Positions 248-60,263 of a stretch of 64,000 nt of DNA are shown piece after piece (the first letter of the stretch is position 1; each line of letters opens with the position of its first letter). The translations under genes and the position numbers were made by a program. Source of the stretch: Nemertoderma westbladi. Its lineage: Eukaryota > Animalia > Xenacoelomorpha. Location of the stretch: contig JAUCBJ010006656.1 of assembly GCA_032718475.1 (NCBI GenBank), forward strand, positions 2,667 to 66,666. Reading direction: 5' to 3'. The notes under the pieces are model-generated. The model was not told the origin of the DNA and did no database searches. It was given only the letters and a program-made list of their open reading frames with translations.

Positions 248-1461
248 TGTAAAAGCTTTTGCGGAATTGCCCGGTTATTTTTCCTTATTTTTCCCGTAAA
301 ATACTCTGTAGTTGGTTTAGTAGGCGTAAGAGGCCGTATTATTGCTGTATCGGTGTTTTTTAGAGGACCTAAGAGCTATTTCTTCCGTATGTGTACTTTG
401 GGGGACATGGTTGGTGATTCTATGGCAATTCTATGACGCAAAATAGCTAGATCCTCTTGAAACAGTAGTTACTATGACGACGGTTAACAGCTGAGCTGTA
501 TACGTGTCGATTTTCTTTGTTCTACGGTGCCTCTCAGTTCAGTCAACCAATCAGAGCGTTTTTACTGTTCTTGTACAGAAATTTCCTAGAAATCACGCAA
601 TGCTTTATGGGCAGTGTTATCATTCAGTCCTGAGCCAAGAAAGAACGGCTTTTGGAATATTTGTGCTTTTCTGCTTTTAGCCTAACACTAGTAGGCTTAA
701 TTATAAGGACATATATCCGTTATCCTGGGTAACTCAATGGTTAACAACTTACTCAATGCTTGGCTGGTCTTGTCGTGCATACTTTTATAACGTTATACTG
801 CTATTTACTGTCGGTTATTCATTATATGGTTGATGAAATATTATATTTGGAATAACGAGAAATAACCCCGAAAACCCAATATTCTTGATATACCGAAGGT
901 AAGAGAGACAGGTTACATATAACGATTGTGACTTATGTTAAAGTGGTTTGAAGTGAATCTAATGTTATCTGATAGACCCTACATGAGTCGGTCTGTGTTC
1001 CTTTTATATGTGACTAAAATCAGTGAAGATCGGCAGATCAGTGTGCAGTATTGTGCAGCATTGTGTATGAGTGAGACTGATAACGAAGCATTTCCTAAAG
1101 AATGCGCCATATATGTGAATTGTAACTAAGCCATATCGTTGCATGTAGTTTAAGTCATAGCTCTGTTTATATAGATAGAGCGCCACGTCCAAAAGGAACT
1201 GTTAATATTCCCCGAAGGTGAATAATATTGTCAGAGATTATATAATACTGTCAGTCGAATAATACATTAGGCTTACATAGCAATAAGATTAAGCCGTCGA
1301 AGTCAATCTCCCGGGTATATCCAGCGGGTGAATGATCGCGCACAGATTGGTTTCAACTAGTGTAGTGAATCAAATACTTGTCAGAGGCTAAAAGCGATTT
1401 ATTATCTAGAAGACATCCTAATTTGGCGGGTTAAACTGCCAAAGGTCTGAAAGCGCGAACA
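248..1461 (+). repeat. 5' LTR of BEL/Pao element 1 (1214 bp)
   Basis: Starts TGTAAAAGC, ends GCGAACA; direct repeat of 11841-13053 with about 3 substitutions and one 1-bp indel seen by eye. Confidence 0.95.
712..723 (+). promoter_or_regulatory. Candidate self-primer sequence inside the LTR (TATATCCGTTAT)
   Basis: Exact reverse complement of 1462-1473; homologous site in the sibling LTR (59501-59511) is complementary to that element's own post-LTR sequence. Function is inferred. Confidence 0.7.
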
Positions 1462-1473
1462 ATAACGGATATA
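1462..1473 (+). promoter_or_regulatory. Non-tRNA primer-binding site (ATAACGGATATA)
   Basis: Directly follows the LTR-terminal CA; lacks the TGG of a tRNA PBS; perfectly complementary to 712-723. Confidence 0.7.
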
Positions 1474-1525
1474 GCTTCTTTATTGCAGTAAGCAATAAAG
1501 TTGAAAGTACCGGTCAACCGGTAAA

Positions 1526-1655
1526 CCTGAACCGGTACTGCGGTACGTCTGTAGGCCCAACTGCCTGAACCGGTACTGCTGTAGGTCTGTAGGCCCAACT
1601 GCCTGAACCGGTACTGCTGTAGGCCCGTAGGCTCAACTGTCCTAACCGGTACTTC
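1526..1655 (+). repeat. 38-bp tandem repeat (~3.4 copies) in BEL leader
   Basis: CCTGAACCGGTACTG units start at 1526, 1564 and 1602, with a degenerate unit at ~1641. Confidence 0.85.
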
Positions 1656-1830
1656 CAGTACAGGTATAGCAGTATTATTCGATTTTGATTATTATATACC
1701 AGTAGGCCTTAATAATTAATCAGGGAGGGCCCGCCCTGGTTTTTTATTGAGATTTTACTTATTTCTGTCAGTTTTATTTATTTGTAGGCCAATATTGAGC
1801 AGAAGGCGTGTAAGCCTGCTCAGATTGTAC

Positions 1831-2405
1831 AGATAATTTGTAGGCTTGACTGTTGGCTAACTGTTGATTAGGTCTGAACGGATTGCAGTGCATGTAGAGT
1901 GTATGTCCGATAAAGAACGGTTAGGAAGTAGGGGCAGCCATAGCTGTAAGGTAAACCCCCATCTAAAGAATAAGTCGTACTACTGGGTTAGAACGCATAC
2001 TACTTAACCATTTCGGAGTCTGCATGTCCTGTGGTTTATTTAGGCCTGATAGGAGTCCGCCAGCGTTTGGTCTGTACTTTGTTTGTGTAGTCTGTACGGG
2101 TAGCGTATAATTTTATTTAGATAATTTGTAGGCTGGATAGTTGTCTGGCTGTTGTTGGGTTTGAGGAAATTTCGGTGTGTGTAGAGCATCTGTCCGATAA
2201 AGTGCTAAGTTAGGAAAGTAGGGGCTTCAAGTGCTGTGAGGTAAACCCCCTGTGAAAGAATAAGTCGTACTACTGGGTTAGAACGCATACTAACTAATCA
2301 TTTTGGAGTCTGCATATACCGTAGTTTGTTTAGGCTTGATAGTAGTCTGTCAGTATTTGGTCTGCATTTTGTTTGAGTAGTTTGTACGCGTAGCGTAATA
2401 TTTAT
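1831..2405 (+). repeat. ~288-bp tandem dimer in BEL leader
   Basis: AGATAATTTGTAGGCT at 1831 and 2119; shared core AAGAATAAGTCGTACTACTGGGTTAGAACGCATACTA; also present in the sibling (~60552-61125). Confidence 0.85.
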
Positions 2406-3741
2406 TATTCAGAGTTTATGCGATTATTCGCAACATTCATTCCCCAAGTTTGTTCCTACAGTAATTGTGTTTGTTATACATACCGTTATAGTTAAACTAA
2501 CCCCGGTACTACATCAGGGCTGCTCGGCGTAGGTAAAGACTGGAGATTTTATGCTTTGGTCACTCCGGCAGATACCGTGGTTCTTTTGGCTGTTCAAGTA
2601 TTTTTAACTACTGATTATTTGTTGTACAAGTACTTGTACCTAATTTAGGGTTTAGTGTACAGTACTTTCCGAAGGTGATTAGTGTGTAGGCAGTATATTT
2701 GTGTTGTAAAGTGGTTAATAGGCACGTTGGTTCTGGTAGACCGCGGTAATTAATCTCTAGGTAGGAACACTCCGTGATACATAACGTAGTACCTATAGCG
2801 ATACGGCTATAGGTCGTCAGGCAGTGGTATTTTCCTATCTGGACAGCGCAATATATTTACTACTACTTATTATTTTCAAATACCGTAGTAACCTGTCCGT
2901 TGTAATAACCAGATATTCTAACCCTTTGTTAGGCTGGTTAGTAGACTTCTTGTAAAATTACCCTAAAAATTTGTATTTGTGTATTTGTAATTAAATTTTT
3001 GTGTTTATTTAGAGATTGTAATCTCAACCCGAATTGTACGTAATTTGTAGTATTAAGTAACTTAGGTAAATTATAATTATTTGTTTTAGTGTCTAACAAG
3101 TAGCACTCCACTGAGAGCGCACAGCTTATGTGTAGTGACTCCCCCAGAAATAATAACATTTATTTCAAACATTGACAAAACCCATTAAACGGGTATATAT
3201 ATATTATAAATCAACTCAAACGATTTATAAATAGTAGGCCTGCCATACAACAATTAGGTCTCAATATCAGTTGGACTACTGCTTAAATAACGGCAATAAA
3301 GTAAGTTAAAGTAACCAAGTAACCCTTAAAATTCAGAAATTCAATTATTTAAAATAATTGATATACCGGTATTTACAATAGGCTTATTATCTTTATTTTC
3401 ATAAACTTAGCCTGAAATCATACCGGTATTCTGTAATTAATTTTAGTTAATAATTATACTTATATATACTATAAGTGTAAACTGCATACCGGTATCCACG
3501 ATAGGCCTATTATATATTTATATATATTTGTGCTAAAATTATATACCGGTATTCTGTAAAAAACCTAGTCTGTAATAATACTTATATATACCATAAGCAT
3601 ACCGGTATTCTAATATTATATATATTACGCTACACTGAGTAGCAGTATCGGTAATTAATTACTAGGCTAGCAGTTAATACTGAATTACTAGACTTGCTTG
3701 GACTGTAATATAGCAGTAGGCATTCAACTGTGCAAACAAAC

Positions 3742-6700
3742 ATGTCTGATACTAAGCAGAACATGTCAGACAGTTTATTAGATGTAACTATCTGCGACTC
3801 AGATAAGGGTGTAGAACCGTCTACACCTAAGTTCAGTTCACCTCCCACTGTGAGGAAGGTCATCCCTCCAGTAGTAATAACAGAACCGAGGCTGGTCCAA
3901 CATCGTAGGTCTATCATAGGCACTCGAGCTCAGGTCAAGCGGGACCAAGAAGCAGCGGAACAGCAACAACCCGCGAGCCAAGAACTTATTTCTCAGCGGC
4001 CCGACAGCTCCAGTAGTGAGGATACTGTAGAGCTAACACCCGAGCGCGGAGCAAGGATGACGGATGCGGTTTATTCGGATCCCCTTCTCATCCTTCCTGC
4101 ATCCGTACTCACTAGGTTATTGATCGCGGTGGAAGAACACCAGATTGATTGGGCGAGAAGTAAGCGATCCACTAAAGATAGTTATGAGGGATACACAAAG
4201 GAAGAACTGAAATCTATTGTCGAGTCGCAATGGAACTTCCCCGGACCCGGACTCCCGTTTGATTTATCAGAAGCTGCCTGGGAAGACATACACCAGATGG
4301 GAGTAGCCAAGGAAACCATCGATCCAGCTGTGTGGAAGAGGTCCGCAGCCGGATACGCACAGGGATTCTTCAGCTCTATGGAGCGAGTAAAAGAACAACT
4401 GTTTCAACAACCGCAAGGACCTCAAGAGCAGGGACAACTGCTTTATCAAGTTAGAGAAAGAATTCTGCGAATTAGGCTAATCTTATCGGCCTTTGAGGAG
4501 GCTTCTAAAAGAAGACAAGACACGTCATTGCAAGTTGCCGTAAAGACTTGGTTTCAACGGGTGAGTCGCCAGGTTCAAGGAACAGCGCAGTGGAAAGCTC
4601 AGCTGGAGGAGCGCTCAACCCATGGAGAATCAACAGACGCTACATTTTCCCAAGTGGAGAGTGAAGCGACAGCAGAGAAACCGCATAAGAGGGATGCCAT
4701 TGACATCTATCTGTCAGACTATCAGCGTTTTTTAGGAGATGAAGAGTTTAGGAGAAGGTTAGATGGACTTAGCCCTAATAGCGAAGGAACTCAGCGTGTG
4801 TTGGATGCCATCGATGTGGACATGAGGGCTGCGAACCAGGCTAAATTTGATGAACGCCTCCGCATCACTAGAGTCCAAGAAGAACAAGTAAAGAAAAAAC
4901 GTATAGAAGACAGAAAGGCAGCGGCAGTAGCAGCAGCAGTGGCATCGGCAGAAGCTGAAAGAAAGGCGGCCGAAGCGGAAAGAAAGGCGGCAGCGGCAGA
5001 GGCAGAAGCGGAGAGAAAAGCGGCCGAAGCGGAAAGAAAGGCGGCAGCGGCAGAAGCGGGGAGAAAAGCGGCCGAAGCGGAAAGAAAGGCGGCAGCGGCA
5101 GAGGCAGAAGCGGGGAGAAAAGCGGCCGAAGCGGAAAGAAAGGCGGCAGAGGCAGTAGCAGAAGCAGAACGGAGAGCGGCTGAAGAAACCACCCAACTAG
5201 AATTGGAAAACATTCAGGAGAATCAAGACTGCATAAATAAACAGTTAACAGCTAGTAATATGCAGATGATGAATCGATCTACTCCCAAAAGACAGGGATA
5301 TACATCATCTGAGGAAGGCGATACCACCGATACTGAAGGCAAAGGAAATAGATCTCACCTAAGCAGACGTAAAAGAACATCCCACCGTCAGAAATTGCCT
5401 GATTTGCCTCCAGCTGTTCGAAGGCAACTAAATAACACCAACTTAGGTAGTACAGAACCCACAGACCAAATAATTACAATAGAGAGACTCCCTACTATAG
5501 TAGATGAGCCTGAAATAATTAGGCCTGTTCCCGAAGCCACCCTTTCGGTCGTAGAGACACCTGTACTCCCTGAACCTACCTCTCAATTCCCTTTGCACAG
5601 CACTAAGCTACCTGTGCCCAGCAGAACAGCCCATGAGACAGTTCATGCCCTGGACTCCGAGCGAAATATTCACGATTTGTCGCCCGTTGTCCCTCGTCCG
5701 CCCGCTACAACGTTGGCGAATCCCGCTTCGGCGGTTGAATGGGTGGATGAGAGACGACGGGGGATGGATCTCCTGCTCAGACAGATGCAGGAGACCGTTC
5801 AGCAATTCAAGGGCACAGTAAGGGAAAGTAGGCTAGAGTTGCAAGAAGTGCAGCAAAGTATCGCGTTAGAACGCGATAAATTAGTAAATACACAAAAGGG
5901 TATACCACCACCCCCTGTAACAATGTGTCAACCTGTTAGGTCTGAATGCGTATCTCATGCGCAAGGTGTGGAGCCTACACGCATCTATACTGCTAGCGAA
6001 GTAGAAACTCCTATAGTGAACCCTATTAAGAGTAATTATAGACCTGTTGATAATGATATTCCCTATAGACCTGATCATAATCCGAGAAATTTATATACCG
6101 ATAACTCGATATTAAATAACACGATGGCCCAAGAAAGTTTTACGCGTCAAATGGCTAGAACTGAAGCCCGGCAAGCGGTAAAGGTGGGAGAGATAGTCAA
6201 GTTCAATGGAGATGAGATGAAATGGTTACCTTTTAATGAATATTATAAAGATAACATACAGAACTCTGTACTATCTAATGGAGAGAAACTTAGATTCCTC
6301 ATCGAGTGTTTGGAAGGATCTCCCAAGTTAATGGCGTTAAAGTTTATTGGACATCCAGACGGATTAAGACAAGTTTGGGATACACTAAACATCAGGTATG
6401 GTAATAGGAATAACATAGCTGGGTATTTGTATGCAAAGTTGGTAGCGCCCCGAAAGTTTATTAGCAGCGGGATTATAGAGTTTTCCGATGAAATTCAGGA
6501 GATCTGCAGACAATTAGATTGGCTAGGTAAGTCTCATGAGTATCAGAGTGCTATGGTTATTAGAGCAGTGGCTTCTACTTTACCGAAGGGTGGAGTAGGT
6601 ACACGCTGGGACAAGAAAGTGTTATATATGATGGAACAACAACGACGAGACCCTACCATGGCTGATCTCATGTCATTCTTAGATGGAGAAGTGAAATTAC

Positions 6701-8772
6701 AGCTCCTAAGGCAGTCCAGAGAGAAGACACTGGAAAACAAGGTAAGTGAGAAACCCGTTTCTAGGAGAAGGGTAACACCAGTGTGTTATACAGACGACGG
6801 CGAAAGCCAGACTTCTCAAGGAGAGGATAGCGGGAAAGACACTGAAAGATCTTATTATGTCAATAAAACGCCTAAAGACCAGGTAAGTAAATTCAAGTCT
6901 CGAACCAATGACAGGAGAGAACAGGTAAGAAAAACTCCTCCTACGTCTCCCAAGAGAATTCAGGTGAGAAAGCCCGAGGAAAGAACGAACGTGCACCACA
7001 CAGCACATGTTAAAGTAAGTAACATCAAGCCCAAATGTGTGCTGTGCGATGGGCCCCACCGTTTAAGTGCGTGTGATGAATTCCTGAGGAAATCTCTAAA
7101 GGACAGACGTGAAGTCATGTGGGATAAGCGGTTGTGTTATAATTGCCTCAGACGAGGACACCAACGGCGAACCTGTTACTCCGACGCAAGGTGTGCAAAG
7201 TGCGGTGCGAAACATCATATCTTGTTGCACACTGAATTCGAGCGAAATAGTCCAAGTCAGGTGAGTGATTCCGAACTACATGTCCAATTCAGTGATGTGA
7301 ACGACACTGATCAATCTGAGATGGAAGGATTCTATACGGACGAGTTCTCCGACGAAAACGAATCCTGTTACATGATAAATACCGCAGTGTATCGAGCACT
7401 CACTTATGAAAAAGATACAGAAAGTGACCTCACTCTAACTACTTCTGATCGACAACCATACTGGAAAGCGCCACCTTCCAATGTAGGAATCCGAGAATTT
7501 CCTGTAGTCCAGTTACGGGTCCACGGACCTCAGAAGAGCTATATAGTGAACGCCCTCCTGGACTCCGGCAGCACAGGAACATTCATCGATAAAGAACTAG
7601 CCGAAGACATCTTTGCTGGACAACCCAAGTTCCGAACCAAGCTAAACATGTCAGGGATCATGCAGGTTTGGAAATCTGCTGTGGCTGCCGACTATTATAT
7701 AGGTGAGTTGTCCACTCCACAGGATAAACTAGGAGAACACAGTATAAGGTCAGTCAAAATGGTGGCAATAAAGAACTTCGCTACCACCCAAGTGGAACCT
7801 TATAATTGGGACGAAGATGATCATGCCCAACGACTTAACATTCCTAGATTCGACACCGATTATCCTGGAGTACAAATATTAATCGGTCAAAACGCGCATG
7901 AGGCGCTGGAGACATTGGAGAAACGACCTGCTCAACCGCAACCACTTCAGACCCATGCGGTAAGAACTAGAGTAGGTTGGTACCTTACTGGACCTTCCCG
8001 AAGAACGCTCAGAGAAAGACTGCTTCAAGATCGCGTCTGCCAGGTGAGTGAATGGGAAGATGATACTAGTGAGGGAGACGACCCAACTGAGGGAACACCA
8101 TACTCCTCAGATAATGACGATATTAGCTCCAATGTAGATCAATGGAGATATTGCCCCAAGAAGTTTAATCCAACTGACATCGCTTCCAGAGGAGCAACTC
8201 CTCAAGAACTGACAGATACTACAGACCGGTTAGGTGAACCCGACTTCCTGAGTAAGGAGGATGAATGGCCTCCCCATCTTACTCCGACTGAGATTAGACC
8301 AGCCAAGGGAGCGGAGAAAGTCAAACCTAAAACCCAGACGGGTGGATCGGAGTTATTTGAACCCGGGATAGATCTGTCGGTATTACATATTGCCAGGGAC
8401 GACGCCGTGGATCTGGACCTCCCCACCGCGAGTGGATCCTTCATGAAGATCAGAGAGAGCGATTGGAGCTCTGGAACATCAGACGTCTCGCAGGGACTCT
8501 CACCTCTCCTGCAGGGAGCGACGGACCACTATAGCTCCTGGATTCGGCTTTGTAAGGCCGTCGTGTACCTAGAGCGATGTTTCTATCGTCACTATTCCAG
8601 GACGAAGAGGAAACCTGGAATTGTATTCGGGATGCAGCGACTCAATCACCCAGTCGGTCGTTTGTGTTTACCGGAAGGGAATGGAGGACTCTCCGGAAAC
8701 TGTGGAAGGCAAGATTCTCTTCCCATGACCACCTCCCTAATCCTTCAAACATCTAGGGACTCCATAACGTAA
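3742..8772 (+). CDS. gag: BEL/Pao Gag-protease polyprotein (1676 aa) with long N-terminal extension and in-frame loss of RT/most RNase H/integrase
   Basis: ATG at 3742 is conserved in the sibling. BEL Gag core (KFNGDEMKWLPF..EKLRFLIECLEG..WDTLNIRYG, DUF1759-like), knuckles CVLCDGPHRLSAC/CYNCLRRGHQRRTC/CAKCGAKHHILLH, protease ALLDSGSTGTFI..ILIG..RTRVGWYLTG, then RNase H C-terminal remnant QWRYCPKKFNPTDIASRG..PDFL..EWP and linker YSSWIRL. Confidence 0.9.
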   Translation: MSDTKQNMSDSLLDVTICDSDKGVEPSTPKFSSPPTVRKVIPPVVITEPRLVQHRRSIIGTRAQVKRDQEAAEQQQPASQELISQRPDSSSSEDTVELTPERGARMTDAVYSDPLLILPASVLTRLLIAVEEHQIDWARSKRSTKDSYEGYTKEELKSIVESQWNFPGPGLPFDLSEAAWEDIHQMGVAKETIDPAVWKRSAAGYAQGFFSSMERVKEQLFQQPQGPQEQGQLLYQVRERILRIRLILSAFEEASKRRQDTSLQVAVKTWFQRVSRQVQGTAQWKAQLEERSTHGESTDATFSQVESEATAEKPHKRDAIDIYLSDYQRFLGDEEFRRRLDGLSPNSEGTQRVLDAIDVDMRAANQAKFDERLRITRVQEEQVKKKRIEDRKAAAVAAAVASAEAERKAAEAERKAAAAEAEAERKAAEAERKAAAAEAGRKAAEAERKAAAAEAEAGRKAAEAERKAAEAVAEAERRAAEETTQLELENIQENQDCINKQLTASNMQMMNRSTPKRQGYTSSEEGDTTDTEGKGNRSHLSRRKRTSHRQKLPDLPPAVRRQLNNTNLGSTEPTDQIITIERLPTIVDEPEIIRPVPEATLSVVETPVLPEPTSQFPLHSTKLPVPSRTAHETVHALDSERNIHDLSPVVPRPPATTLANPASAVEWVDERRRGMDLLLRQMQETVQQFKGTVRESRLELQEVQQSIALERDKLVNTQKGIPPPPVTMCQPVRSECVSHAQGVEPTRIYTASEVETPIVNPIKSNYRPVDNDIPYRPDHNPRNLYTDNSILNNTMAQESFTRQMARTEARQAVKVGEIVKFNGDEMKWLPFNEYYKDNIQNSVLSNGEKLRFLIECLEGSPKLMALKFIGHPDGLRQVWDTLNIRYGNRNNIAGYLYAKLVAPRKFISSGIIEFSDEIQEICRQLDWLGKSHEYQSAMVIRAVASTLPKGGVGTRWDKKVLYMMEQQRRDPTMADLMSFLDGEVKLQLLRQSREKTLENKVSEKPVSRRRVTPVCYTDDGESQTSQGEDSGKDTERSYYVNKTPKDQVSKFKSRTNDRREQVRKTPPTSPKRIQVRKPEERTNVHHTAHVKVSNIKPKCVLCDGPHRLSACDEFLRKSLKDRREVMWDKRLCYNCLRRGHQRRTCYSDARCAKCGAKHHILLHTEFERNSPSQVSDSELHVQFSDVNDTDQSEMEGFYTDEFSDENESCYMINTAVYRALTYEKDTESDLTLTTSDRQPYWKAPPSNVGIREFPVVQLRVHGPQKSYIVNALLDSGSTGTFIDKELAEDIFAGQPKFRTKLNMSGIMQVWKSAVAADYYIGELSTPQDKLGEHSIRSVKMVAIKNFATTQVEPYNWDEDDHAQRLNIPRFDTDYPGVQILIGQNAHEALETLEKRPAQPQPLQTHAVRTRVGWYLTGPSRRTLRERLLQDRVCQVSEWEDDTSEGDDPTEGTPYSSDNDDISSNVDQWRYCPKKFNPTDIASRGATPQELTDTTDRLGEPDFLSKEDEWPPHLTPTEIRPAKGAEKVKPKTQTGGSELFEPGIDLSVLHIARDDAVDLDLPTASGSFMKIRESDWSSGTSDVSQGLSPLLQGATDHYSSWIRLCKAVVYLERCFYRHYSRTKRKPGIVFGMQRLNHPVGRLCLPEGNGGLSGNCGRQDSLPMTTSLILQTSRDSIT
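4915..5180 (+). repeat. Coding tandem repeat encoding an (AEAERKAA)n Ala/Glu/Arg/Lys-rich helix
   Basis: Repeated GCGGCCGAAGCGGAAAGAAAGGCGGCAG units; shorter version in the sibling at ~63580-63725. Confidence 0.85.
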
Positions 8773-10265
8773 CAACATATGGAGTGGGTGTGTGACTCTA
8801 TTATTTTGTATTTGTTTTAATTTTATATTTATGTATGTATTATTATGTAATTTTATTTTAATCGTTTTATTTAATTTTATTTAGTAGTATGGTATTTTAG
8901 AGATTATTTAGTAGATTAGTGCAATATATATTCGCGTTTATTATTTAATTACGTATATTATATATTTAGTGCGACGGCGAGAAATAATTCTTTTTCTCTT
9001 TCCTTACTGCCCGTATCATATTATAAATACGTGACTACAGTAAGATGAAATATCCGTACTTATTAAAGTACAATAAAGCCACTACTATATTTAAGTATTA
9101 TTGGTAGGCAGAGTATTAGGAATGCAAAGTTCAGATCCTCGTGTCTCGGCTAAACCAAGCTCTGGGTAGACCTTGGAAACGACTTGCCTCTTCACACTGA
9201 CATTGCTTCGTGCGATATTGCTCTCATACCGTATATTAAATAATACATATAGTAGCGTGATGTCCCTCTAACAGTAGCGTGAAACGCAAATAAATCTGTT
9301 AAACCTTTTGACCATCTGTAATTCTAGTCGATTAAGATATCGCGGCACCCACCGATATACTTGAAAGACAAATTCTAGAATCAGTGGTTAATGTCCCCAG
9401 ACATGTTCTAGAATCAAAACATGTCAATTTAATTATCAAATAATAAAATTTCAGGGAATAAATTTAAATTCATGCCTTTTAATGAATTTAATAAATTGCC
9501 ATTTTTACGCAATTTATAACATTCCCAAAATTCCATTAATTAATAGATCAAGGGAGCGGAGATTTATCTTCTTATGCGTATGAGTGTGCGAAAGTCTCCC
9601 AAACATAGTCAATAGCCGATAAAATTCATAAAGCCATGTATAAAACAGGACATTGACCATTAAAGAATTACTATTAAATAACATCCCAGATCTGTATGCA
9701 TTGGAATTACCCTAATTCTACCGCTAGCTTTGCATAATGTCACCATAGCAACAACCACGCTAGAATTAGAATTGAGTTAAAAGAACAATAGAAAGCTTGT
9801 CCCATTGAATAGCATAGGGAATAAATAGCGCACTGCTAGTATCCAAGGATACATGATAATAACGTGACATTCTGGAAGGCACTGACTAACGGACAAGTGA
9901 CCCGAGTGTGTGTAATTTGTGACAAGTTGTGTGTGTGGTATTTGTGAGTTTATAGGCGAATGTTACTACTAAGGTGTGTTTACAGTAGCGAGTCGCAATT
10001 GTGAAAGTAACCCTAACTCTCCAGTAAGAACCTGAGGTGTATCTAAGCCTTTGGGACGGACAGTCGAGTGACTTGTGCCGGTTGTCGTTGTCGTTGTGCG
10101 GCTACGTCGTTGGCGAAAGTACAGCGGCGACGACACATCGGCGCTGAGGATCTCGCACTGTCCGGGGGCTGATTGGGGTAGGCAGCGACGCTCGCTAGCC
10201 TAAATATAAACTCATTATAATATTAATAAACTCATATATAGCAGATATGACGGAGTTGATAGAAG

Positions 10266-11204
10266 ATGGTCTTGGTATCAGGGAGCGATATACTCTACTT
10301 TCAAGCATTTGTTGATAGCTTGATACGCGGTGATACTAGTCCAACTACTACGGAGGATGATGGTCGTTATATCGAACCTACGATTTCCTGGAAGTAACTT
10401 ACGCGTGAATTGGACTATGGAAAATTCACCGCTCGCTATACGCATCGTAATGGTACGTATATGGACTTCTTGACTACTGGTCATCCTATTGATTTACACG
10501 ACACCGACGATATAGACACCGAAAGGGAAATGGTTTTATTTAAATATCATACCCAGCGGAGTCGAAACGATAAATCGAGAATAGAACACGAGAACTCTAT
10601 TCGAAACAGACTCGAGAGGGAAGACGTTGAAGAACCTGATAAACGTCGCGACTTCAACGACTATCTAGAATTCCTAAGAGAGACCTATCTCAATATTGCC
10701 AGTCAACAAAACCTCGAAACTCGATATCCTCAAGGTATACATCCAGACCCTATGATGGAACTCAAACGGCTCTATTTTACGATGATGTATCTTACCGCCG
10801 ATCGACCGCTACCTGTCGTTCCAGATAGCTTCGAACAGATGGAGGAATATTGTAAAACTGGAGAGCGATCACCCGCGTTTCCCCTTCAAGACGTGCGTCT
10901 TTGGTATTATTACGATAAATGCCCTAGACCCAGCCAATAAACAGAAAGACATAAACATCCACGGAAACGTTGTGTTAAACACAGTTGTGCTCGTTATATT
11001 TACTGGAGTTTCGAGCGAAACTTGTTTGACGTATCACCTATGCTCACTCGGCTCGAACGATCCTGGAGTAAACCTACGATCAGAGTCCCGGAATACTCGG
11101 TCAAACCTCCTCATTCCTTAGTTGGACCTCAGACCTGCGATCCTGGTGGTGTCGCGGATCCTCGCGGACTGTATTCACTGTTCAAAGATCTAGTGCTACC
11201 CTAA
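10266..11204 (+). pseudogene. Degenerate accessory ORF of unknown function in the 3' internal region of the BEL element
   Basis: ATG at 10266 and ORFs 10410-10940 and 11022-11204 share one frame, broken only by TAA at 10395 and 10938; no recognised homology. Confidence 0.45.
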
Positions 11205-11832
11205 CAATTAATTGGTAACACTCCGACAGAGATTTCTAGCTAGCCGCTCATCTTACCTAGCCGGATTGTGACGCGGACACCTAATATCACTATCCAACCG
11301 TATGGTCGTCCCCGTTTAACGCGATACAACCCTTCATCAAGGTGAAGGAGAGCATTGTACGAAACGAGTTAAACGCTATTCTATAAAGATCAAAAAAGAA
11401 ACCTGCGTTTGTTCAGATAAACGTAAGTTATAACAGTAAGTCCAATCGATAAACGAATTGGCCTTATCTCAGTTCGATTGGGAAATCTCGAAACTCTAAG
11501 AAGATATCAAGCTTAGAAAATCCTATTCTCTGCGAGAGTTTTGGACGAACGTATCCCATGACAAGCGGAGGAAAATCAGCTCGAGGAGAAGCATATCGAA
11601 ATGGACGAGACACCGACCGTAAACCCAAACCTTCTAATGCAATTGTATTGCACCCTTTACCCAGAGTTATAGCCTTTCTAGTAAAGTGGCTCGCCCCAAA
11701 GAGAAAAGGACTCTTGCTGGCCTCGGGAAACTGCGTGAACGCCGTCCGCGCAAGAAAACTAACTGTTTAGAGTATCTTTATGTTTTAGAAACTGTGATTT
11801 TTATATTTTATAGACTGAAAATCCCATTTTCT

Positions 11833-11840
11833 GGGAGCGG
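11833..11840 (+). promoter_or_regulatory. Short polypurine tract (GGGAGCGG) before the 3' LTR
   Basis: Purine-rich run immediately 5' of the 3' LTR TG. Confidence 0.55.
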
Positions 11841-13053
11841 TGTAAAAGCTTTTGCGGAATTGCCCGGTTATTTTTCCTTATTTTTCCCGTAAAATACTCT
11901 GTAGTTGGTTTAGTAGGCGTAAGAGGCCGTATTATTGCTGTATCGGTGTTTTTTAGAGGACCTAAGAGCTATTTCTTCCGTATGTGTAATTTGGGGGACA
12001 TGGTTGGTGATTCTATGGCAATTCTATGACGCAAAATAGCTAGATCCTCTTGAAACAGTAGTTACTATGACGACGGTTAACAGCTGAGCTGTATACGTGT
12101 CGATTTTCTTTGTTCTACGGTGCCTCTCAGTTCAGTCAACCAATCAGAGCGTTTTTACTGTTCTTGTACAGAAATTTCCTAGAAATCACGCAATGCTTTA
12201 TGGGCAGTGTTATCATTCAGTCCTGAGCCAAGAAAGAACGGCTTTTGGAATATTTGTGCTTTTCTGCTTTTAGCCTAACACTAGTAGGCTTAATTATAAG
12301 GACATATATCCGTTATCTGGGTAACTCAATGGTTAACAACTTACTCAATGCTTGGCTGGTCTTGTCGTGCATACTTTTATAACGTTATACTGCTATTTAC
12401 TGTCGGTTATTCATTATATGGTTGATGAAATATTATATTTGGAATAACGAGAAATAACCCCGAAAACCCAATATTCTTGATATACCGAAGGTAAGAGAGA
12501 CAGGTTACATATAACGATTGTGACTTATGTTAAAGTGGTTTGAAGTGAATCTAATGTTATTTGATAGACCCTACATGAGTCGGTCTGTGTTCCTTTTATA
12601 TGTGACTAAAATCAGTGAAGATCGGCAGATCAGTGTGCAGTATTGTGCAGCATTGTGTATGAGTGAGACTGATAACGAAGCATTTCCTAAAGAATGCGCC
12701 ATATATGTGAATTGTAACTAAGCCATATCGTTGCATGTAGTTTAAGTCATAGCTCTGTTTATATAGATAGAGCGCCACGTCCAAAAGGAACTGTTAATAT
12801 TCCCCGAAGGTGAATAATATTGTCAGAGATTATATAATACTGTCAGTCGAATAATACATTAGGCTTACATAGCAATAAAATTAAGCCGTCGAAGTCAATC
12901 TCCCGGGTATATCCAGCGGGTGAATGATCGCGCACAGATTGGTTTCAACTAGTGTAGTGAATCAAATACTTGTCAGAGGCTAAAAGCGATTTATTATCTA
13001 GAAGACATCCTAATTTGGCGGGTTAAACTGCCAAAGGTCTGAAAGCGCGAACA
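11841..13053 (+). repeat. 3' LTR of BEL/Pao element 1 (1213 bp)
   Basis: Near-identical to 248-1461; followed by TSD GTAAT. Confidence 0.95.
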
Positions 13054-13447
13054 GTAATGGGCCTAACTTCCTAATTCATATCCTCAACAATCAGTCCCAG
13101 ACCAATAGACCAAGCTATTCCAGTACACAGGCAAATAGGCCTATTAACTAACCCGCTATTACTATATATGTGACAGGTACGGTACCCGGTAGGCTTCCCT
13201 ACATAATTTATTATACAGTATACAGCAGTACACAACAAATAATAGGCATACCTGATAAGAAATTAATATTTAATTTGGCGACAATTTTATTCAATAATTT
13301 CGTGAATTGTCTTATAGAAAAGCAACGCGCGCCTTATTTTATCTAAAAGTTGATACCCGGGGTTATTTTTTTGTGCTCTTTCTATTTTCGACTGTATTCG
13401 ATTGTGTTCGGCAGTTTTTGGAGTGTGTTGGGGTGTATCTGCAAATC

Positions 13448-17644: not shown

Positions 17645-20600
17645 TGTAGTATGGTATGGGACCTACCGGTATGAATGATCAGTATTATATATATCATTGC
17701 CTTCTCAATACTATACTGGCGCAGTGTGTAGTTCAGTAGTTACCGGTACTGCGGTATTTAGGCTGGTCTGGCATCTGGTGTTCAGTACCGGGTTGCAGTA
17801 CCTACCGTGTGGATAATATTGGCAAACATATTTATTTGCTCGAACTGTGAACTGGCTGGTCGGTATGATTATAATTTTGATTATCAGTTTATTGTTGGCC
17901 TAACTGCCTGACTTAACACTTTCGCGGTGTAACTCTGAACTCTTTGGCTTAATCGGAACTGGCTGGCAGGCTGGCAAACCTCCTGGACTGCTGGACGGAT
18001 TGTTGCTGTATTTCTGTATTTGATAGGCCTACCGCTACTACTGCTGTACGGTGGATGAACGAACATACTGGTACTTACAAACAACAAACATACCAGTACT
18101 CACAAACTGACAGCGTATTGGTACAACACTATATCTGGACATAACTTACCGGTACAGCCCTATGGCGATGGCGAAGTACCCAGTACCCCCGGCATTGGAT
18201 GTCAATGCTGAAGATATGGCTTTAGAATTTGGAGAATGGCGTCAAACATTTGATTTCTGGGCAGATGCAACCGACCTACGTAATACAGATAATGTAGAAT
18301 CCCGAAAGGTTGGTGCACTGATGACATGTATTGGTAAAGCAGGTCAGAAAATTGCCATCCAAAATTTTACCTATACTGCAGATCGTCCATGCACTCTCAC
18401 TAATCTGTTGGATGATTTTGCAACCTATTTTGAACCCCTGCGCAATTTGTTGGTTATGCGCCACCTTTTTATGTCTCGTAAGCAGCGAGATGGGGAAACA
18501 GTTTCTGATTTTTTAACTTCACTGAAACAGTTAGCTAATTATTGTGAATTACAAAATGAAACACCTGACACTAAAGTTCGAGATATGTTTATTGTAGGGA
18601 TTCAAAATGAAGAATTGCGTAAACAGTTGTTGCAGCTTCCTGCAGATGCAACTCTACCTCAGGTGCGCAATTTAGCAGGGGCATTTGAAGCAGCTCAGTG
18701 GTCATAAGGAACTTAAATTCTCGGGAGAGGAGAAGGGTACCACATCTGATGTACTGGCAGTTAGACGCTGCCCTGTTCAATGGCGCGAATCTGGTACTGG
18801 TGCCAGTAATAGTAGCCTAGGTAGGCCTACTGGAAAACCTCTGACTACTTATATACCCAACCAGCGAAATCGTATGTCAGGGTGGGATGTTTTTCGGTTT
18901 TGCTGTCAGTCTCATCGAAAAGGTTCATGCCCTGCCTATGGTCTGTTTTGTCAGCAATGTGGGTTGCGTAATCACTTCAGGGGCTCCCCACTCTGCAGAC
19001 AGGGTCAGGGAATAGGGAAATCCACGCCCAACTCATTGCAAGCAGTACCACCTTCTGGTGTTTCCCGGCGGAATCTTCCATCTCATAATGTTAGATATGT
19101 TGAGGATGAATTTTGTGCAGTTGATGCTATAGTTCAGGACTCGTTTTCTCAGCTTGACATTGATGCTGACCATGAGGTTGAGGTATATGGCTCAGACCAT
19201 GATGATGTGTCATCATATGACATTCAGACAATTAAGCATGTCATTTCGCAAATTGGTGTTGATACATCTAAGTGGATGGTTTCCTTGTATGTATTAGGTC
19301 CATCACAAGGTATGTATATTGTATATACCATTTTTAGTGGATACTGGTACTAAGCACAGTATAATTCCCAGTAAATTCATATCTCCTATGATTATTCAAT
19401 CTGCACCTGCAGAACAACTGCGTGGCTATATGTCCCAATGTTCATTACCATTGTTAGGGACGGCAACTGTTACTCTAACCTATTCCGGAGTTACAATTAG
19501 CACCAACATATATGTTGTCCGTGATGCACCCCTTTCCCTTCTTGGCCAGGACGATATAGAAAAGTTAGGCCTCATCAGCTGTCATTTTAAGCCACACCAC
19601 TCAAATGTTGTCCATTCAGTGAATTCTTCTTATTCAAACATGTATTCGTCTGGAGAGAATAGAGAATTGCCTCCAATGAAAATACCCTGTGTTGATATTA
19701 AGATTAAGCCAGATGCCCTTCCAGTCCAACAGCCTATTACGTCGCATCCCATTTGGTTTATTGCCTGAGCTAAAGGAGGAAATCCTTCTTTCTTAGTGGG
19801 AATTGTTTAGAGGGAATTATTATACGTGTGGAATCAAAAGAGGAAAGAGAAAATCCCAGTGAATGGGTAAGCCCAGTGGTATTAGCCCGAAAACCTAGTG
19901 GGAAACTTAGGCTATGTTTAGATCTTCGGGTATTAAATAAAGCAGTAGTCCATTCACGGATTCTTATCCCAACTCCAGAGGAGCTCTTTGCCAAGGTTGA
20001 AGGATGTTGCAATTTTTCGAAATTGGATGCATACTCTGGATTCCATCAAGTGTGACTTTCTCCCTCAGCCTCACAGCTAACAACTTTTGTTCTTCCATTC
20101 GGTACCTTTAGATATGTTTGCCTCCCATTCGGTATTACTAATGCACCCGAATTATATCATCAGTTAATGGCTGAAAGCTTGGAAGATATCAAGGGTGCTG
20201 ATGTTCTGGAAGACAATGTTCTTATTTATGCAAAGACCTTAGATGAGCATGATGCAATATTAGCAATGGTAATGCAGCGCTGTAAGAATATGTCTATCTA
20301 CTTAAATCCAGCGAAGTGTGAATATAGGAAGTCTGAGTTGAGGTACCTGGGCCATATCATTCCAGCTGAAGCTTGCTTTGCTTTTTTTGCTGCAAAGATT
20401 CAGGCAGTGACTTAAATGTCCTCACCAACCTCAGTGGCAGAGTGCCGTCGATTTCTAGGGATGGCAACATATTTGGCCAAATTTGTGCCAAGGTTTAGTG
20501 AGATTTCCACTCCCATCCGTAATCTGCTGAAGGGAAATATTGTCTTTTATTGGTCTTCTGATTGCGAAAAAGCCTTTAGTGACATCAAGAACCTGCTTAC

Positions 20601-21254
20601 TAAATTTCCTACATTAAAGTTTTATAATCCCGACCTTGACTCATATATCCAATGCGATGCTTCGCCTTCAGGCTTGGGTGTTGTTTTGCTACAATCTGAC
20701 CCTAGTACTTGTACTATACGACCTGTTGCATTTGCCAGTCGGTCTCTGTCACCCACAGAGCAGCGATATTCCCAAATAGAACGGGAGACCTTAGCTATTT
20801 CATTTGGTGTCCATAGGTTCCGCCAGTATGTTCTTGGATTGAAGTTCACAGTCCTCTCTGACCATAAACCATTGAAAGCAATATTTGACAAACCCCTTGA
20901 TAAATGTCCTGCTCGGATAATGAAGTTCTTGGTTAACCTACAACAGTATTCGTTTGTTCTCCAGTTCATTCCTGGTAAGACTAATATAATTGCGGACACC
21001 CTATCCAGAGCTCCCCTTCCTAATGCACAGGATGACATAGGTTATGATTCGTACATCAATGTAATCCTCCCGTCTCACTTTGTGGATATAGAACAATTAG
21101 CTCAGGAGACATCCAAATGTTCTGAGGTGTCTAGTATTATCCGACGACTTCAGCTAGGTGATTGGACATTGTTAACAGAAGTGGAAGCGAGATATAAAGG
21201 TATCTTAAATGAACTGTCTGTGATAGATGCTCGGGATTCAGCTGTATTGATCTG
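17645..21254 (+). mobile_element. Gypsy/Mag-like LTR retrotransposon A, 5' LTR to RNase H, decayed
   Basis: TSD TAACG at 17640-17644, 71-bp LTR 17645-17715, PBS TGGCGCAG at 17717, Gag from 18162 (FMSRKQRDGETVSDF, paired Zn knuckles), protease VDTG, RT (WVSPVVLARKPSGKLRLCLDLR, LDAYSGFHQV), RNase H (CDASPSG, YSQIERE, SDHKPL); frameshifts and stops. Confidence 0.9.
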
Positions 21255-23650
21255 ATGGAACAGGATGCAGTTAATAAAGTAAAAAGTCTATGTAAGGGGA
21301 CCATATTTACAGCTGGAGACTTCAATTGCCGCATTGACGACCCATGTAATCGTGGTGACCAGCTCAGTGGAGGTCTAATTGGCGCTGTACTACACTGTTT
21401 AAACAATCCCACTGAACCGACATATCATTGCTGGAATGAGCAAAGCACGATCGATTTGATCTTTGTTGAAGAACCTTTAATAGAAAACACAGTTATAGAA
21501 ACCCTACCAACCTTTAACACTAAACACGTATGGGTTAAGGCGGAGGTGGCCCTTAATCAGATAAACCGAAGACAGCGGCGAGCTGTTAAGATAAAATACT
21601 TGGATGTCAATAAACTAGAAGAAATACTAAACATTAGTGATTTTGAGGCTGAACTAAACAATGGTGCAATGGCAGCATGCAGTTGCATTACAACAGCACT
21701 ATCGCAGGCATCTAAAGAGCAGAGCCCAAGACAATCCAAACCGTGGTTTGATAGCAAGTGCCATGAGGAAAGAAGAAGGGTTGCAATCAAGTACAAAGAA
21801 ATGATAGCTTCACCCACAGCTCAACTGCGAGAAGAACACAACGCAATAAAGCGCTCATATAGGTGGCTATTGTTGAATAAGAAGAAAGTGTTTGAACTGA
21901 GAAAGGAATACAAACTAGTTGAGGATTGCGAGTCAAACAAAGCAAAGTTTTGGGATATTATCAAACCACGACAGGTCAAACCCGCTTCTCAGCAAGTTTC
22001 CCAAGAAGACTGTACTGCCCACTTGAGGGGACTGCTGAAGGCGAAAGAAGCACCCAACATGCCCGATCTGCCGGAAAACCCGGTGATGGATGACCTGGAC
22101 CGCTCATTCAGATGTTGAAATATCTGAGGCTATCTTAAAACAAAGAATAATAAGGCTACGGGGCCAGATGGAATTACAAATGAGGCATTAAAAATAGGGC
22201 TGCGACATCTACTTCCATTTCTTCTCGCACTGTTTAGCATATGCTTCTCTGCTGCTACTAGCCCCCTCCAATGGCTATTATCATATCTTATCCCACTTTA
22301 TAAAGGTAAAGGGCCAGAAGTCATCACCAGATAACTACCGTGGTGTCGCTCTTTTATCGTGTCTGTACAAGGCCTACTCTGGAATGTTGGCCACTACACT
22401 CTACCTTTGGGCAGAATTAAATAATAATCTTCGTGATGCGTAGTTTGGTTTCCGCAGAGGATGCTCGACTCTTCTAGCTGTGAAACTCTGGTACAACCGT
22501 CTTCAAACAGCAATTAACCCATCCGGGGGACACATTTATTGTGTATTCGTTGACTTTAATAAAGCTTTCGACTCTGTAAACCGGGAAAAACTTGTCCGCA
22601 AGCTATCAGCGATTGGAATCAGCAGGAAATTTATCACTGCAATTTGGGTATTTCTTGCAATTAATTTTGTTTGTATAAGTATTGCAGGTTACATTCTAGA
22701 TGCAATAGAACAGACCATCGGGCTAGTGCAGGGAGACAAATTGTCTCCGCTACTGTTTAGTTTGTTCATCTCAGACCTTCCTGCGGTACTGACAGCGGTC
22801 TGCTGCTGGGTAATTATGTTTGCCGACGATCTTGTGATCATAGGAAACTCAATTGAGGATGTTCAAACGAGTCTCGATAGATTGGCTGAATACTGTAATT
22901 CGAACGATCTCGTTGTTAATTTAAAAAAGACAAAGGCTGTGAAATTTCGAAAAGGTGGTCCACTGTCAAGAAGTGATGTTTTAACTTACATGGGGAATCC
23001 AGTTGAGTTTCAGAACTCCTACTTATACCTCGGTGTACTGCTATCAATGAAAAATGGCCCATCAAAACACTACGACCATTTGTACAACAAAGGCCTCGTT
23101 TGCTGTGTTCGCCTAGCAACCACGATTTGCTTAACAACCATCGGCATGAACTCAGCACAACACCTATGGAAATCTATTGTTATCCCATCGATTACATATG
23201 GTTGCAAAACATTTACTCCTGATAGTGAACAGCTAAATGAAAATGAATAAGAACATGTCAGAAAAATCCGAGGCCTATTCTGGAAAATGTGGTGCGGGAT
23301 CAGTAAATACGCCTCTACAACCACAATCTTATCTGCAATCGATCAGGCAACTACATTGGAACCCCACCTTCAACCCCTGACGGGGTATCGACGACGGACA
23401 GCTGCGCAATTAATATCAAACAGGTACCACCATAAGATGTGTTCAAACGAGCGATGTTGGCGACAGACTGACACTTGCATCTGTAGACTGTGTCTCGCGC
23501 CTGTGACGAACAGCCTCCACTACGAACTATGCAAATATATCCCGAAACTGACATCCAAGCTACGTTGTGCCATCTTTCTAGATAAATTACAATTACCTTC
23601 CACTGAGAATGATCTGTGACCGAATAACTTATTTATTTTATTATTACTTT
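21255..23650 (+). mobile_element. Non-LTR retrotransposon ORF2 (RTE-X-like), decayed
   Basis: Endonuclease GDFN and STIDL; PWFD; RT motifs FVDFNKAFDSV, QGDKLSPLLF, FADD, YLGV; C-terminal CRLC..H...C; AT-rich tail. Clade call is tentative. Confidence 0.85.
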
Positions 23651-23730
23651 TAAATGGCCTTTTATCCAATATGTATATCTATATTTTCCTTCGAAATTTT
23701 TGTTGGTGCTAATTTTAACTCGATTATGAA

Positions 23731-24190
23731 TCAATTAAATACTGATACATTCAATTCGGTATTCAGGACTCCCTCCAGTCCAATTCGGTATTCAGGACTC
23801 CCTCCAGAAATAAGTTTGACTTTGTGTTTCGTAATGTCCTTTATAAGTCCAGTCAGATCTTCATAAAACTTAACTGTTTGTTCTGGCTCTGAGGCATTGG
23901 TTGGACTGTAGCAACATATTACTGTTGTCTTGGGATTCCTATCAAATGTTGCAATCATGACCCTGGAATTTATAGATTCGATGTTGTTTAGGGTCTGAAG
24001 TGCAAATGGGCTTAGCAGAATTCCTACTCCACCAATTGATGCTTTGCTCAAATTTCTGCTTTCTGCTGAGTTTGTTACTAACGTCCATCCATTTCCAATG
24101 TCATTATACTTGATGCATCCATCATCTTCATGACAAATACAACGTACTTGAATACAGATTATGTTGATGTAATATTCCATAGTCAAATAA
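23731..24190 (-). mobile_element. RTE-like LINE endonuclease fragment (paralogue at ~34420-34686 and ~36770-36890)
   Basis: GGVGILLSP..SRVMIATF..VICCYSPTNA..FYEDL. Confidence 0.8.
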
Positions 24191-24476
24191 TGTTATCCAA
24201 TTGTTGACACTTTTAACTTGTATAATTATTGTTAACTACACTTTTACCATATGAATGGCAACCATCTTTTTGTAATTCTGATTTTGATTAATTGATAAGG
24301 CTGACCCTAAATAGGTCTATATTTCCTCTGTATTTCATTCGGATCCATGATTTTTATGTAACTATAATTATTCTCTGTTGTCAACTTTTGTTTGGGCATA
24401 CTACTTTACTAATGAAATGACTGTCGATGAACACCGTGGTACTTAATTTATTACATTTTATTATTATCGATTTTAC

Positions 24477-43292: not shown

Positions 43293-44739
43293 AACTCAGA
43301 ATCGTTGCCCTATGGCACTACTGTGGTGAGATTGCAGGTGATTCCAACATACATCATCATCGTCCATGTCCATGCCTTACCCTGTATCACACTCGGACCT
43401 TTGTTATCTTGAATCCATGCTGGGGCAAGAGGGGCGCAAACAAACCTTTGCGAACTATCTTCACTTTGGTGGCATCATTGTCAATGTCAATACTGGGCAT
43501 CATGGTTACAGTTTATTTTAGGTCGAATAAGGCTGTTGATCGCATGGGAATGTGGATGTCCACTTGCGGCATGCATTAATTTGCCAGTACTCTTGCTATG
43601 GATAGTGAAGTCTCAAAGTGAGGGGAAGGTGAAATCCATGTCGAAGCCAATCCTCTCTATATTGTGTATATAAATGGTTTAGTGTTTGATATCATCGTTC
43701 CAACCAAATTCGGAATGGCTGTCTGGCTCAGCGAGCAAAGTGGTAATTTCAAATTATTGTTTCAATATCAAAAATTTGAATTGGTTTGGTTTTTCTATTT
43801 TTTTCCTCCTTTCTCCGTTATTTTAATATAATTATTATTAATATTAAAATAATAATTTCAATATTTTTGGGGACCCGCCCCAAATCTACGTGGGGCTTGG
43901 TACTGCAGTCCAAAACTGCCGTCATTAATACGGCCCTGAATCAGTTCTTTCTTCCGGAATCGACCTCACTTTGACATATTCACTCTAAACTCCCATCCTG
44001 ATATTTTGGTTTGGATTGATGATAATATCAGAAAGGAAAATGACAATTGGCTATACATTCACCGCCAATTAACTGCCATCGCATCGCAATATGTGGGAGT
44101 TGTCTTTCTGCCTAAAATATCTCAAGTGTGTATGTAGAGCTTCAAGATGTGTTACCGAATGCATGCACAGTTGAATACAAAACTAATAATCAGGAAATTA
44201 ATTGGAAGTTTCTTCTGAGGATTTTCTAGACCTTGGCTAAGCAACTATATTTCATTTATTTCGTATTTGATGTTTTAAAATGAATGGGAACTGTCTGGCT
44301 GTCTCGTTTCTAACAATCAATTTATACAATAATGTTGATATTATCATGTATATAATATATATATATAATGTATGTATTAGGTTTTATGATTATCTATTAT
44401 TTACTAATTCAGTTTTATACATATCCAAACAGCTTGACTTTTTAACACCATATTAATGTTTATTGAATAGTTTGGGTAGGGGATTTTTGGATTCATTTAT
44501 AGTAATACTCTCATTATTTTATAAATACAATACTTGATATTTTTGTTATGAATTTACGTTCAACACTCACATTATATTTGTATAATAATGTACTAATATT
44601 ATTGTTCATATAACTTTTAAAAAAGTAAACTTGGAGAAGGAACTTAAATTTAATGGTTAAAGATCATACGCATATTCCTATGATTTAGTTACTTTTCACA
44701 CAATTTCATCAGGAGACAGAGAAGTTATAATACTTCACA

Positions 44740-47135: not shown

Positions 47136-47297
47136 ATATATAAATAATTAATAATAACGCAACCCACGGCTAGACATGCTGACAAGGTCGGCGGAAGGTA
47201 ATCAACCAACGGCGACCTACTGCGAAGACGCTTGTAGGAGTTGCAACCACAAGCGGTTTACTCTCGCATCTAAAAGATATGAGTATGAGAACAGTCA

Positions 47298-55930: not shown

Positions 55931-56369
55931 GTCCAATAATCATAAAAAAATACCTTCTGAATTAAAATTTTGTGCTTTTTCTCGTGGAGACATCCAATTA
56001 GCACCACTGAGCACAGAAATTTGCAGAAATTGAATGCAAACCCCAAACTTCATCTCCTTTACCGATATCGCGATATATCGGAGCCAGTATCTTCTATCCC
56101 AAATATCTCGAAAACTAAGCAAGATATGGGAAAACGGTTTCCACATTTGGATTCAGCAGGAAATTCTGCATCAGATAGGATATGTTTCAAAAATTCAACT
56201 TTTTTGTCAGAAAATGCGCTACCCCCCCCCCCCCCCCCTTAAAACAAAGGTTTTGGAAAATCGTAATAAACGATGCAGCTTCACGGTATTGTATAAAGGT
56301 GCAGCTTCACGCTATTGGAACTTGGCGATAGTGCAGAACAACAGGTTATTGGTTACATTATATTCGCCG

Positions 56370-57170: not shown

Positions 57171-57618
57171 TAAACCACCTATTCTAAAATATTTGTAATG
57201 ACATAACAATGATAAACACATTACTTCGAATTATTATTTCGGTTATAATAACACTTCAATTTAACAAATAAATTACTTAATTAATGTACAATAAATATAT
57301 TAATTTATTGTCCTTCCCATCTCTAGATATAGTTTATCGACGTCACAGGTAGCATTCACCCGTTAAATAAGTGATTTTGGAACGAGCGATAGATACCTGT
57401 AAGGCATACTTTATTAATTGCCAAATAAAATAATATATTTAAGAGAAAATATATTTGAATTATTGTTTTTTTACGAAGATATATATAATTTAGTTGTATA
57501 TACTTTACACAGGCAAATAGTTAGTTGTTTTTTAGAGACCTTTTTATTATTTTTAAATTCCATCACCTCACATTCAAAAAGAAAGTAGATAGTTCTAGTC
57601 TATTTGAAGTATTAATTT

Positions 57619-60252: not shown

Positions 60253-60263
60253 GTAACAGTTTA
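60253..60263 (+). promoter_or_regulatory. Non-tRNA PBS of the sibling (GTAACAGTTTA), complementary to 59501-59511
   Basis: Exact reverse complement TAAACTGTTAC in the same LTR at the position homologous to 712-723. Confidence 0.7.

Follow-up and report, generated by a model that had tools for sequence, protein, structure and literature searches.

Two related LTR retrotransposons, E1 and E2, lie in the window, the 64,000-nucleotide stretch of Nemertoderma westbladi DNA analysed here, and we propose that they prime reverse transcription in the manner of Tf1, with a word of their own LTR as the primer and with enzymes likely supplied in trans (probability about 0.65). We are clearly more confident that priming uses the elements' own RNA in one form or another. 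A first-pass annotation of this DNA had proposed tRNA-independent priming, which is supported here as the likeliest reading and strengthened by a control panel of BEL/Pao loci in which 11 of 11 TGG-type loci stand against the non-TGG loci.

Self-complementarity at the LTR edge

Neither 5' LTR is followed by the TGG of a tRNA-type PBS, as the first-pass annotation had noted, and the nucleotides in that position are the exact reverse complement of a word inside the LTR, both in E1 and, in letters unlike those of E1, in its sibling E2.

712-723, + strand: E1 candidate self-primer (12 nt), exactly complementary to the PBS
1462-1473, + strand: E1 PBS position, 12 nt, without TGG, complementary to 712-723
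59501-59511, + strand: E2 candidate self-primer, 11 nt, overlapped by TATAAA at 59499-59504
60253-60263, + strand: E2 PBS position, complementary to 59501-59511

The LTR complement is longest at offset 0, counted from the terminal CA, where it measures 12 nt in E1 and 11 nt in E2. The pairing, which was annotated as abutting the LTR end, does start at the first base past the terminal CA in both elements, and it extends neither into the LTR nor beyond the PBS. From other start offsets (-20 to +40) no run in E1 exceeds 8 nt; E2 has a single further run, 10 nt long and starting at +16, that forms a distinct U5-leader arm. Both duplexes are perfectly Watson-Crick with no G-U pairs, and their predicted energies are -13.3 and -11.5 kcal/mol, as compared with -2.7 and -5.0 kcal/mol when the E1 and E2 words are swapped. 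Among dinucleotide-shuffled versions of the LTR, the site occurs in 4 of 20,000 for E1 and 19 of 20,000 for E2, and in the window-wide background a 12-nt match is found at 64 of 62,773 positions (0.10%) and an 11-nt match at 121 of 62,774 (0.19%). A PBS at the LTR edge that is complementary to an LTR word of at least 10 nt, the sequence pattern of the Tf1 type, is thus present in both elements.

That the words of E1 and E2 are positionally homologous is supported by a shared short block (CTAGTA, then GCTTAA(A)TTAT, read from the sequences) that precedes both, and the complement ends in both at the same ATA context, with the boundary after the first A. Compared without gaps the words differ at 5 of 11 positions, as first counted, but allowing one gap reduces this to 3 substitutions and 1 indel; reading of the sequences shows these differences, indel included, to be mirrored in primer and PBS. 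The first-pass annotation took this for compensatory covariation, and for the two copies available to a direct comparison it holds that the letters differ and the pairing is kept, but the changes probably did not arise as separate compensations. Were the PBS templated from the primer, each mirrored change would need a single step, and the mirrored indel would be explained in the same way. The shared stop in the ATA context would fit a PBS copied from the primer as far as a fixed point.

Variation in the family was drawn from contigs of two DNA runs, in which depth is not copy number and primer and PBS cannot be phased; E2-type words are too unlike E1 to be placed, and a third covarying pair was not obtained. 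All 33 places that vary at 10% of depth or more are within 813-1428, and none falls in the E1 primer (712-723) or PBS in either of the two runs, which is weak evidence because only ~1.3 would be expected in these 24 nt. Directly beyond the word lies a region of a different character:

724-792, + strand: hypervariable spacer, starting where the pairing ends, poorly alignable with E2

Depth in run X1 is 257k over 690-717 but 6.5k over 746-773, and the joints seen in contigs (3 of 3) start at 724, one base beyond the paired word. The word is common to the family and the sequence after it is not. The family itself is very abundant, with 13,239 contigs of X1 matching 248-1800, and its U3 types are mosaic.

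Anatomy and identity of E1 and E2

E1 is complete at both ends, and E2 runs off the end of the window.

243-247, + strand: GTAAT target-site duplication, left copy, recurring at 13054-13058
248-1461, + strand: E1 5' LTR, TG...CA, 1214 bp, with 4 differences from the 3' LTR
3742-8772, + strand: E1 ORF of 1676 aa, with Gag (DUF1759), Cys-His knuckles, an aspartic protease motif and a short post-RNase H piece
11833-11840, + strand: PPT position, a short purine-rich tract GGGAGCGG (8 nt) upstream of the 3' LTR
11841-13053, + strand: E1 3' LTR, with a second copy of the primer word inside, at 12305-12316
13054-13058, + strand: GTAAT target-site duplication, right copy
59054-60252, + strand: E2 5' LTR, 1199 bp, its distal part 81.5% identical to E1 and its U3 not alignable
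62405-64000, + strand: E2 gag reading frame, truncated by the window end, with 78.8% nucleotide identity to E1

E1 occupies 248-13053 (12.8 kb), and since its LTRs are nearly identical (4 of 1214 positions unlike) and flanked by the 5-bp GTAAT duplication, it was inserted recently. Its assignment to BEL/Pao in the first-pass annotation is confirmed by a DUF1759 match in the ORF (E 1.9e-10), by the Pao domain PF05380 in all 33 of the E1 homologues found, and by a BEL/Pao profile built from 20 homologues, which matches E1 with E 3.9e-69 but only over profile positions 23-636 and 1182-1233. Positions 637-1181 and everything past 1233 are missing, and with them RT, the RNase H core and integrase; a profile search finds no BEL RT anywhere in the 64,000 nucleotides. 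E1 is a deletion derivative of BEL/Pao and, because RT, RNase H and integrase are absent, a non-autonomous member. Gag and protease homology, TG...CA LTRs, a short target duplication and a (short) PPT are the BEL/Pao features that E1 has; it has neither the PR-RT-RH-IN set nor an 18-nt PBS for the 3' end of tRNA-Arg or tRNA-Gly.

The leader (1462-3741) is unusually long, at 2.3 kb, with a 38-nt tandem repeat (1526-1653) and ~290-nt duplications, and its identity between E1 and E2 (88.6%) exceeds that of the distal LTR (81.5%) and of gag (78.8%). The possibility that the E2 PBS is a target duplication was considered and rejected, the E2 leader being so similar to that of E1. In the 3 kb after the ORF (8772-11840) there are open stretches at 10398-10940 and 10941-11204, in the same frame with one TAA between them, and a Pfam search of the 3' ORFs of E1 gave no match.

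Elsewhere the window contains other retroelement fragments at 20416-27227 (Gypsy-type RNase H, endonuclease and RT pieces) and a host gene at 44731-46068, where 445 codons without interruption encode a neurotransmitter-gated ion channel subunit (PF02931). At 47289-51041 RT-bearing frames overlap on both strands, together with a 772-bp direct duplication (98.6%) that has further partial copies at 56355-58563.

47983-48777, - strand: RT-bearing frame
48782-49942, + strand: RT-bearing frame (RVT_1)
49881-51041, - strand: RT-bearing frame

BEL/Pao elements of other animals

A scan of prokaryote genome records yielded 25 BEL/Pao loci (L008-L032), apparently animal DNA within MAGs; they resemble host-animal contamination, and one family is represented by near-copies in two MAGs that bear different names. 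Fourteen could be tested, 12 with both LTRs and 2 with a usable partial LTR, and the other 11 of the 25 (L010, L012-L015, L018, L019, L021, L024, L028 and L031) were left out as having no usable LTR-PBS junction. The 11 TGG-type loci represent 4-5 families, 7 of the 11 being near-copies of a single one; none has a match to its own LTR longer than 6 nt, and 115-274 of 300 shuffles do as well. A metagenome scan by LTR motif (2 loci) and a viral scan (5 loci) gave none resembling the window, and a protein scan of viral contigs gave no match.

The three remaining loci (L008, L009 and L011) lack TGG and have contiguous LTR matches of 7-8 nt only, but the PBS of each matches a splice junction predicted from the sequence inside the LTR. 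In L011 the match is 11 nt long at offset 0 (0 of 300 shuffles; L011:49-632), and this junction was predicted from the PBS before its donor was inspected. In L009 it is 11 nt at offset 5 from the LTR edge (1 of 300 shuffles; LTR positions 303-451 of the 3' LTR, with the PBS region at 141-160), and in L008 10 of 11 nt at offset 0, with a perfect run of 8 nt (21 of 300 shuffles; L008:5615-6180). The acceptor filter was relaxed after the L008 and L009 junctions had been spotted by eye, so that these two are not blind. The contiguous words of E1 and E2 score 1 of 300 shuffles each in the same test, and a self-complement is seen in all 5 testable non-TGG elements (12 nt in E1, 11 in E2, L011 and L009, and 10 of 11 in L008). 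A splice-junction primer for E1 and E2 themselves was rejected, there being no match among 76 donor-acceptor pairs in E1 and 5 nt among 33 in E2. At the LTR end of L008 (L008:6135-6169) a word that by eye resembles a tRNA T-arm stands directly before the terminal CA.

L009 has a TATA box and initiator ~65 nt upstream of its primer, because of which that primer would not be the 5' end of the RNA. This suggests that primers in the non-TGG clade need not be 5'-terminal, and the requirement would then be a start at or upstream of the word.

In a quick-search RT tree of 56 rows, L008, L009 and L011 form one clade with P0001, the best protein hit of E1 (SH-aLRT 99, on a long stem), and 11 TGG-labelled rows, which include L024 (labelled by motif alone) and exclude L032, are in another (95). 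The non-TGG clade contains nemertean and bivalve proteins and holds 10 of the 13 best hits of E1. The corresponding Gag tree, likewise a quick search, has 42 rows, 10 near-copy or long-branch names having been dropped, 9 of them among 51 rows; it puts E1 on the non-TGG side (98), on a long branch without firm position. E1 scores 207 bits on the profile of the non-TGG clade, as against 172 and 95 bits on others, the last of these built from 5 sequences only. These comparisons make it likely that E1 belongs with the non-TGG clade. The first-pass proposal that this lineage independently evolved self-priming is too narrow, for non-tRNA elements of other animals are self-complementary too and fall in the clade of E1's best hits.

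Priming, its alternatives and known systems

In the mechanism that we favour, transcription would start at or upstream of about 712 and the word would pair with the PBS across ~740 nt, or fewer if a predicted intron is spliced, with U5 and leader arms assisting in an arrangement like the three-duplex pretzel of Tf1. A cut just 3' of the word, made by RNase H as in Tf1, would expose a 3'-OH, from which RT would copy U5-R starting at the LTR edge. In Tf1 the primer consists of the first nucleotides of the mRNA, RNase H cleaves on its 3' side, and the primer is retained. Plus-strand synthesis would copy the still-attached primer of E1 or E2 into the new PBS, and the two words would stay matched, indels included. 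Since E1 is without RT, RNase H and integrase, an autonomous relative would be needed to supply all three.

The features that might shape the E1 RNA are as follows:

899-1234, + strand: intron inside the LTR, predicted from sequence only; donor 899 is conserved in E2 (59681), and candidate acceptors end at 1174 or 1234
1271-1287, + strand: U5/R arm, predicted partner leader 1479-1493 (pretzel-like), overlapping AATAAA at 1282-1287
1337-1341, + strand: CGCGC, predicted to pair with GCGCG at 1453-1457 at the LTR end, identical in E2
1422-1443, + strand: predicted U5 hairpin, maintained in E2 via two one-sided changes
1478-1500, + strand: post-PBS hairpin (predicted), alternative fold to the U5-leader arm and shared with E2

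The primer helix reaches a probability of 0.91-0.98 only in a folded RNA that begins with the primer and stops no more than 150 nt from the PBS; a leader longer by 300 nt, or another 60 nt on the upstream side, lowers it to 0.00-0.02. The helix sits 4.7-5.3 kcal/mol above the free optimum, competing folds exist, and leaving out the predicted intron does not rescue the long-leader fold. Because the outcome depends on the window folded, folding neither proves nor excludes the primer helix. With the PBS held unpaired, a U5-leader duplex is predicted at homologous sites in the two elements (60042-60060 with 60269-60292 in E2), enclosing the PBS, and in E1 1337-1341 pairs with the LTR end under this constraint as well. 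Taken alone this arm is not significant (22 of 300 shuffles as good for E1 and 150 of 300 for E2), and for the CGCGC/GCGCG pairing 42 and 49 of 300 shuffles are as good. Rfam gave one chance match only (E 0.88). The distance from the 3' end of the primer to the LTR end is 738 nt in E1 and 741 nt in E2, in agreement with the ~740-nt loop first annotated, but the predicted intron that starts at 899 could make the loop shorter. That intron (899-1234 in E1, 59681-59994 in E2) is upstream of the likely poly(A) signal, the order being as in L008 and L011; the AATAAA at 1282-1287 recurs in the 3' LTR and is carried by 64% of X1 depth.

Where transcription starts bears on an unlikely but real alternative, in which the start is ~20-30 nt downstream of the word, the word is part of U3 and is present only in the 3' LTR copy of the RNA (12305-12316), and the primer is cut out of that RNA or out of another packaged with it; priming would be tRNA-independent and not Tf1-like. 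E1 and E2 do not share a TATA box 25-30 nt upstream of their primers, and the TATA-like words nearby (TATAA at 702 in E1, -10; TATAAA at 59499 in E2, -2, overlapping the primer), together with an initiator-like TCAAT at 734 (+22) and 59528 (+27), could place the start downstream of the word; the pairing would still finish at the LTR edge. Against this, the TATA-like words are in non-homologous places and match the consensus poorly, and TCAAT falls in the least conserved stretch of the LTR. A cut in the 3' U3 would also cost the RNA its 3' R, on which strand transfer depends, unless another RNA served, and the length of a primer copied from there would be unrestricted, yet it is 11-12 nt.

We give no greater weight to a structural role for the pairing, as a cyclisation element or folding switch like CYC5/CYC3 of Ty1, with the primer being, for example, the post-PBS hairpin or a host RNA. 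Ty1 requires a long-range pairing adjoining its PBS (PMC3592414), E1 and E2 share a conserved hairpin after the PBS as does the PBS-less fungal GalEa (PMC5445492), and the competing folds noted above are in keeping with such a switch. The Ty1 pairing, however, sits beside a tRNA PBS, whereas that of E1 and E2 occupies the PBS position itself; it starts at the LTR edge in E1, E2, L011 and L008 with no TGG site nearby, and it is perfectly Watson-Crick in both copies, as expected from copying. Far less probable is priming by a small host RNA, such as a fragment from inside a tRNA, with the match to the LTR incidental or a by-product. Half-tRNA primers do exist in Ty1/copia lineages (PMC6317226), but the two PBSs differ at 4-5 positions, so that two different host RNAs would each have to be identical to one of the words at the homologous LTR sites, and four 7-mers from the PBSs and primers are absent from a table listing 12-nt metazoan tRNA ends and PBSs, which covers tRNA 3' ends only. 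There are no tRNA genes within the window. Chance complementarity in AT-rich sequence is the least credible explanation of all: both words are AT-rich and come as two copies from one window, but the per-copy probabilities are 0.0002 and 0.001 by shuffling and 0.001 and 0.002 against the window background, the positions are homologous, and no such match is found in the 11 of 11 TGG controls.

If Tf1-like priming by the LTR word is correct, self-priming would have originated independently once more, in a superfamily described as tRNA-primed, and the elements would be free of tRNA supply and presumably of control by tRNA fragments. Such priming would explain why PBS searches fail on such elements, and the primer and cut site would be predictable from sequence. 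A broader proposal is tentative, with the odds a little against it: that tRNA priming has been replaced by self-priming throughout a BEL/Pao branch of aquatic animals in two forms, with a spliced primer in L008, L009 and L011 and a contiguous one, possibly after intron loss, in E1 and E2, with copying of the primer into the PBS and with the abundant, RT-less family of E1 spreading by means of enzymes supplied in trans.

The ICTV describes BEL/Pao elements as primed by host tRNA, with an 18-nt PBS for tRNA-Arg or tRNA-Gly (PMC8742986). E1 resembles the Belpaoviridae (Semotivirus) in its DUF1759 Gag, Cys-His knuckles, protease, 1.2-kb TG...CA LTRs and 5-bp target duplication, but E1 and E2 are without a tRNA PBS and E1 is 12.8 kb long and non-autonomous. 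We found no report of BEL/Pao self-priming in the literature searched, the scope of which left subscription journals, Repbase, GyDB and most supplements outside. The available parts of PMC3601003, PMC6934838, PMC5443660, PMC8220671, PMC13524379, PMC5445492 and PMC6238403 contain none, and the terms PBS, primer and tRNA are absent from those of PMC3118150, PMC554778 and PMC6238403.

Self-priming has been demonstrated in Tf1 and suggested for Tj1, Tosmo, Tcn1 and the Copia TAR lineage (PMC4600332, PMC10085805 and PMC6317226), and because it is known in Tf1 and predicted in plant Copia the mechanism proposed here is not new in kind. The fungal GalEa Copia elements, with their Conserved Hairpin Site, and the bivalve biv-TRIM also lack a tRNA PBS and have a hairpin just past the 5' LTR (PMC5445492 and PMC6934838). 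E1 and E2 have a perfect LTR complement, and the mechanism of biv-TRIM is not clear in the available part of PMC6934838. The plant Ty1/copia TAR lineage (Houba, Osr-1) and Tcn1 show, by prediction only, the same sequence pattern as E1 and E2, that of a complement of at least 10 nt at 0-5 nt from the LTR in the published predictor (PMC6317226); they belong to other superfamilies and other hosts, and they imply that self-priming arose more than once. Closest in arrangement are Tf1/Tf2 of Schizosaccharomyces pombe, Tj1, Tosmo1-3 and the Tf1/sushi group, in which the PBS after the LTR complements a short LTR word and there is no tRNA site, and the U5/leader duplexes of E1 and E2 can be drawn in the same nested order as the Tf1 pretzel (PMC10085805 and PMC4600332). 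Membership of Tf1/sushi, with its Ty3/gypsy polyprotein and chromodomain integrase, was rejected, all homologues being BEL/Pao. E1 and E2 are BEL/Pao elements in an animal and not Ty3/gypsy chromoviruses; their primer-PBS gap is ~740 nt with a predicted intron, their 5' end and cleavage are putative, and E1 is without an RT or RNase H of its own. At most they work like Tf1, and they are not members of its group.
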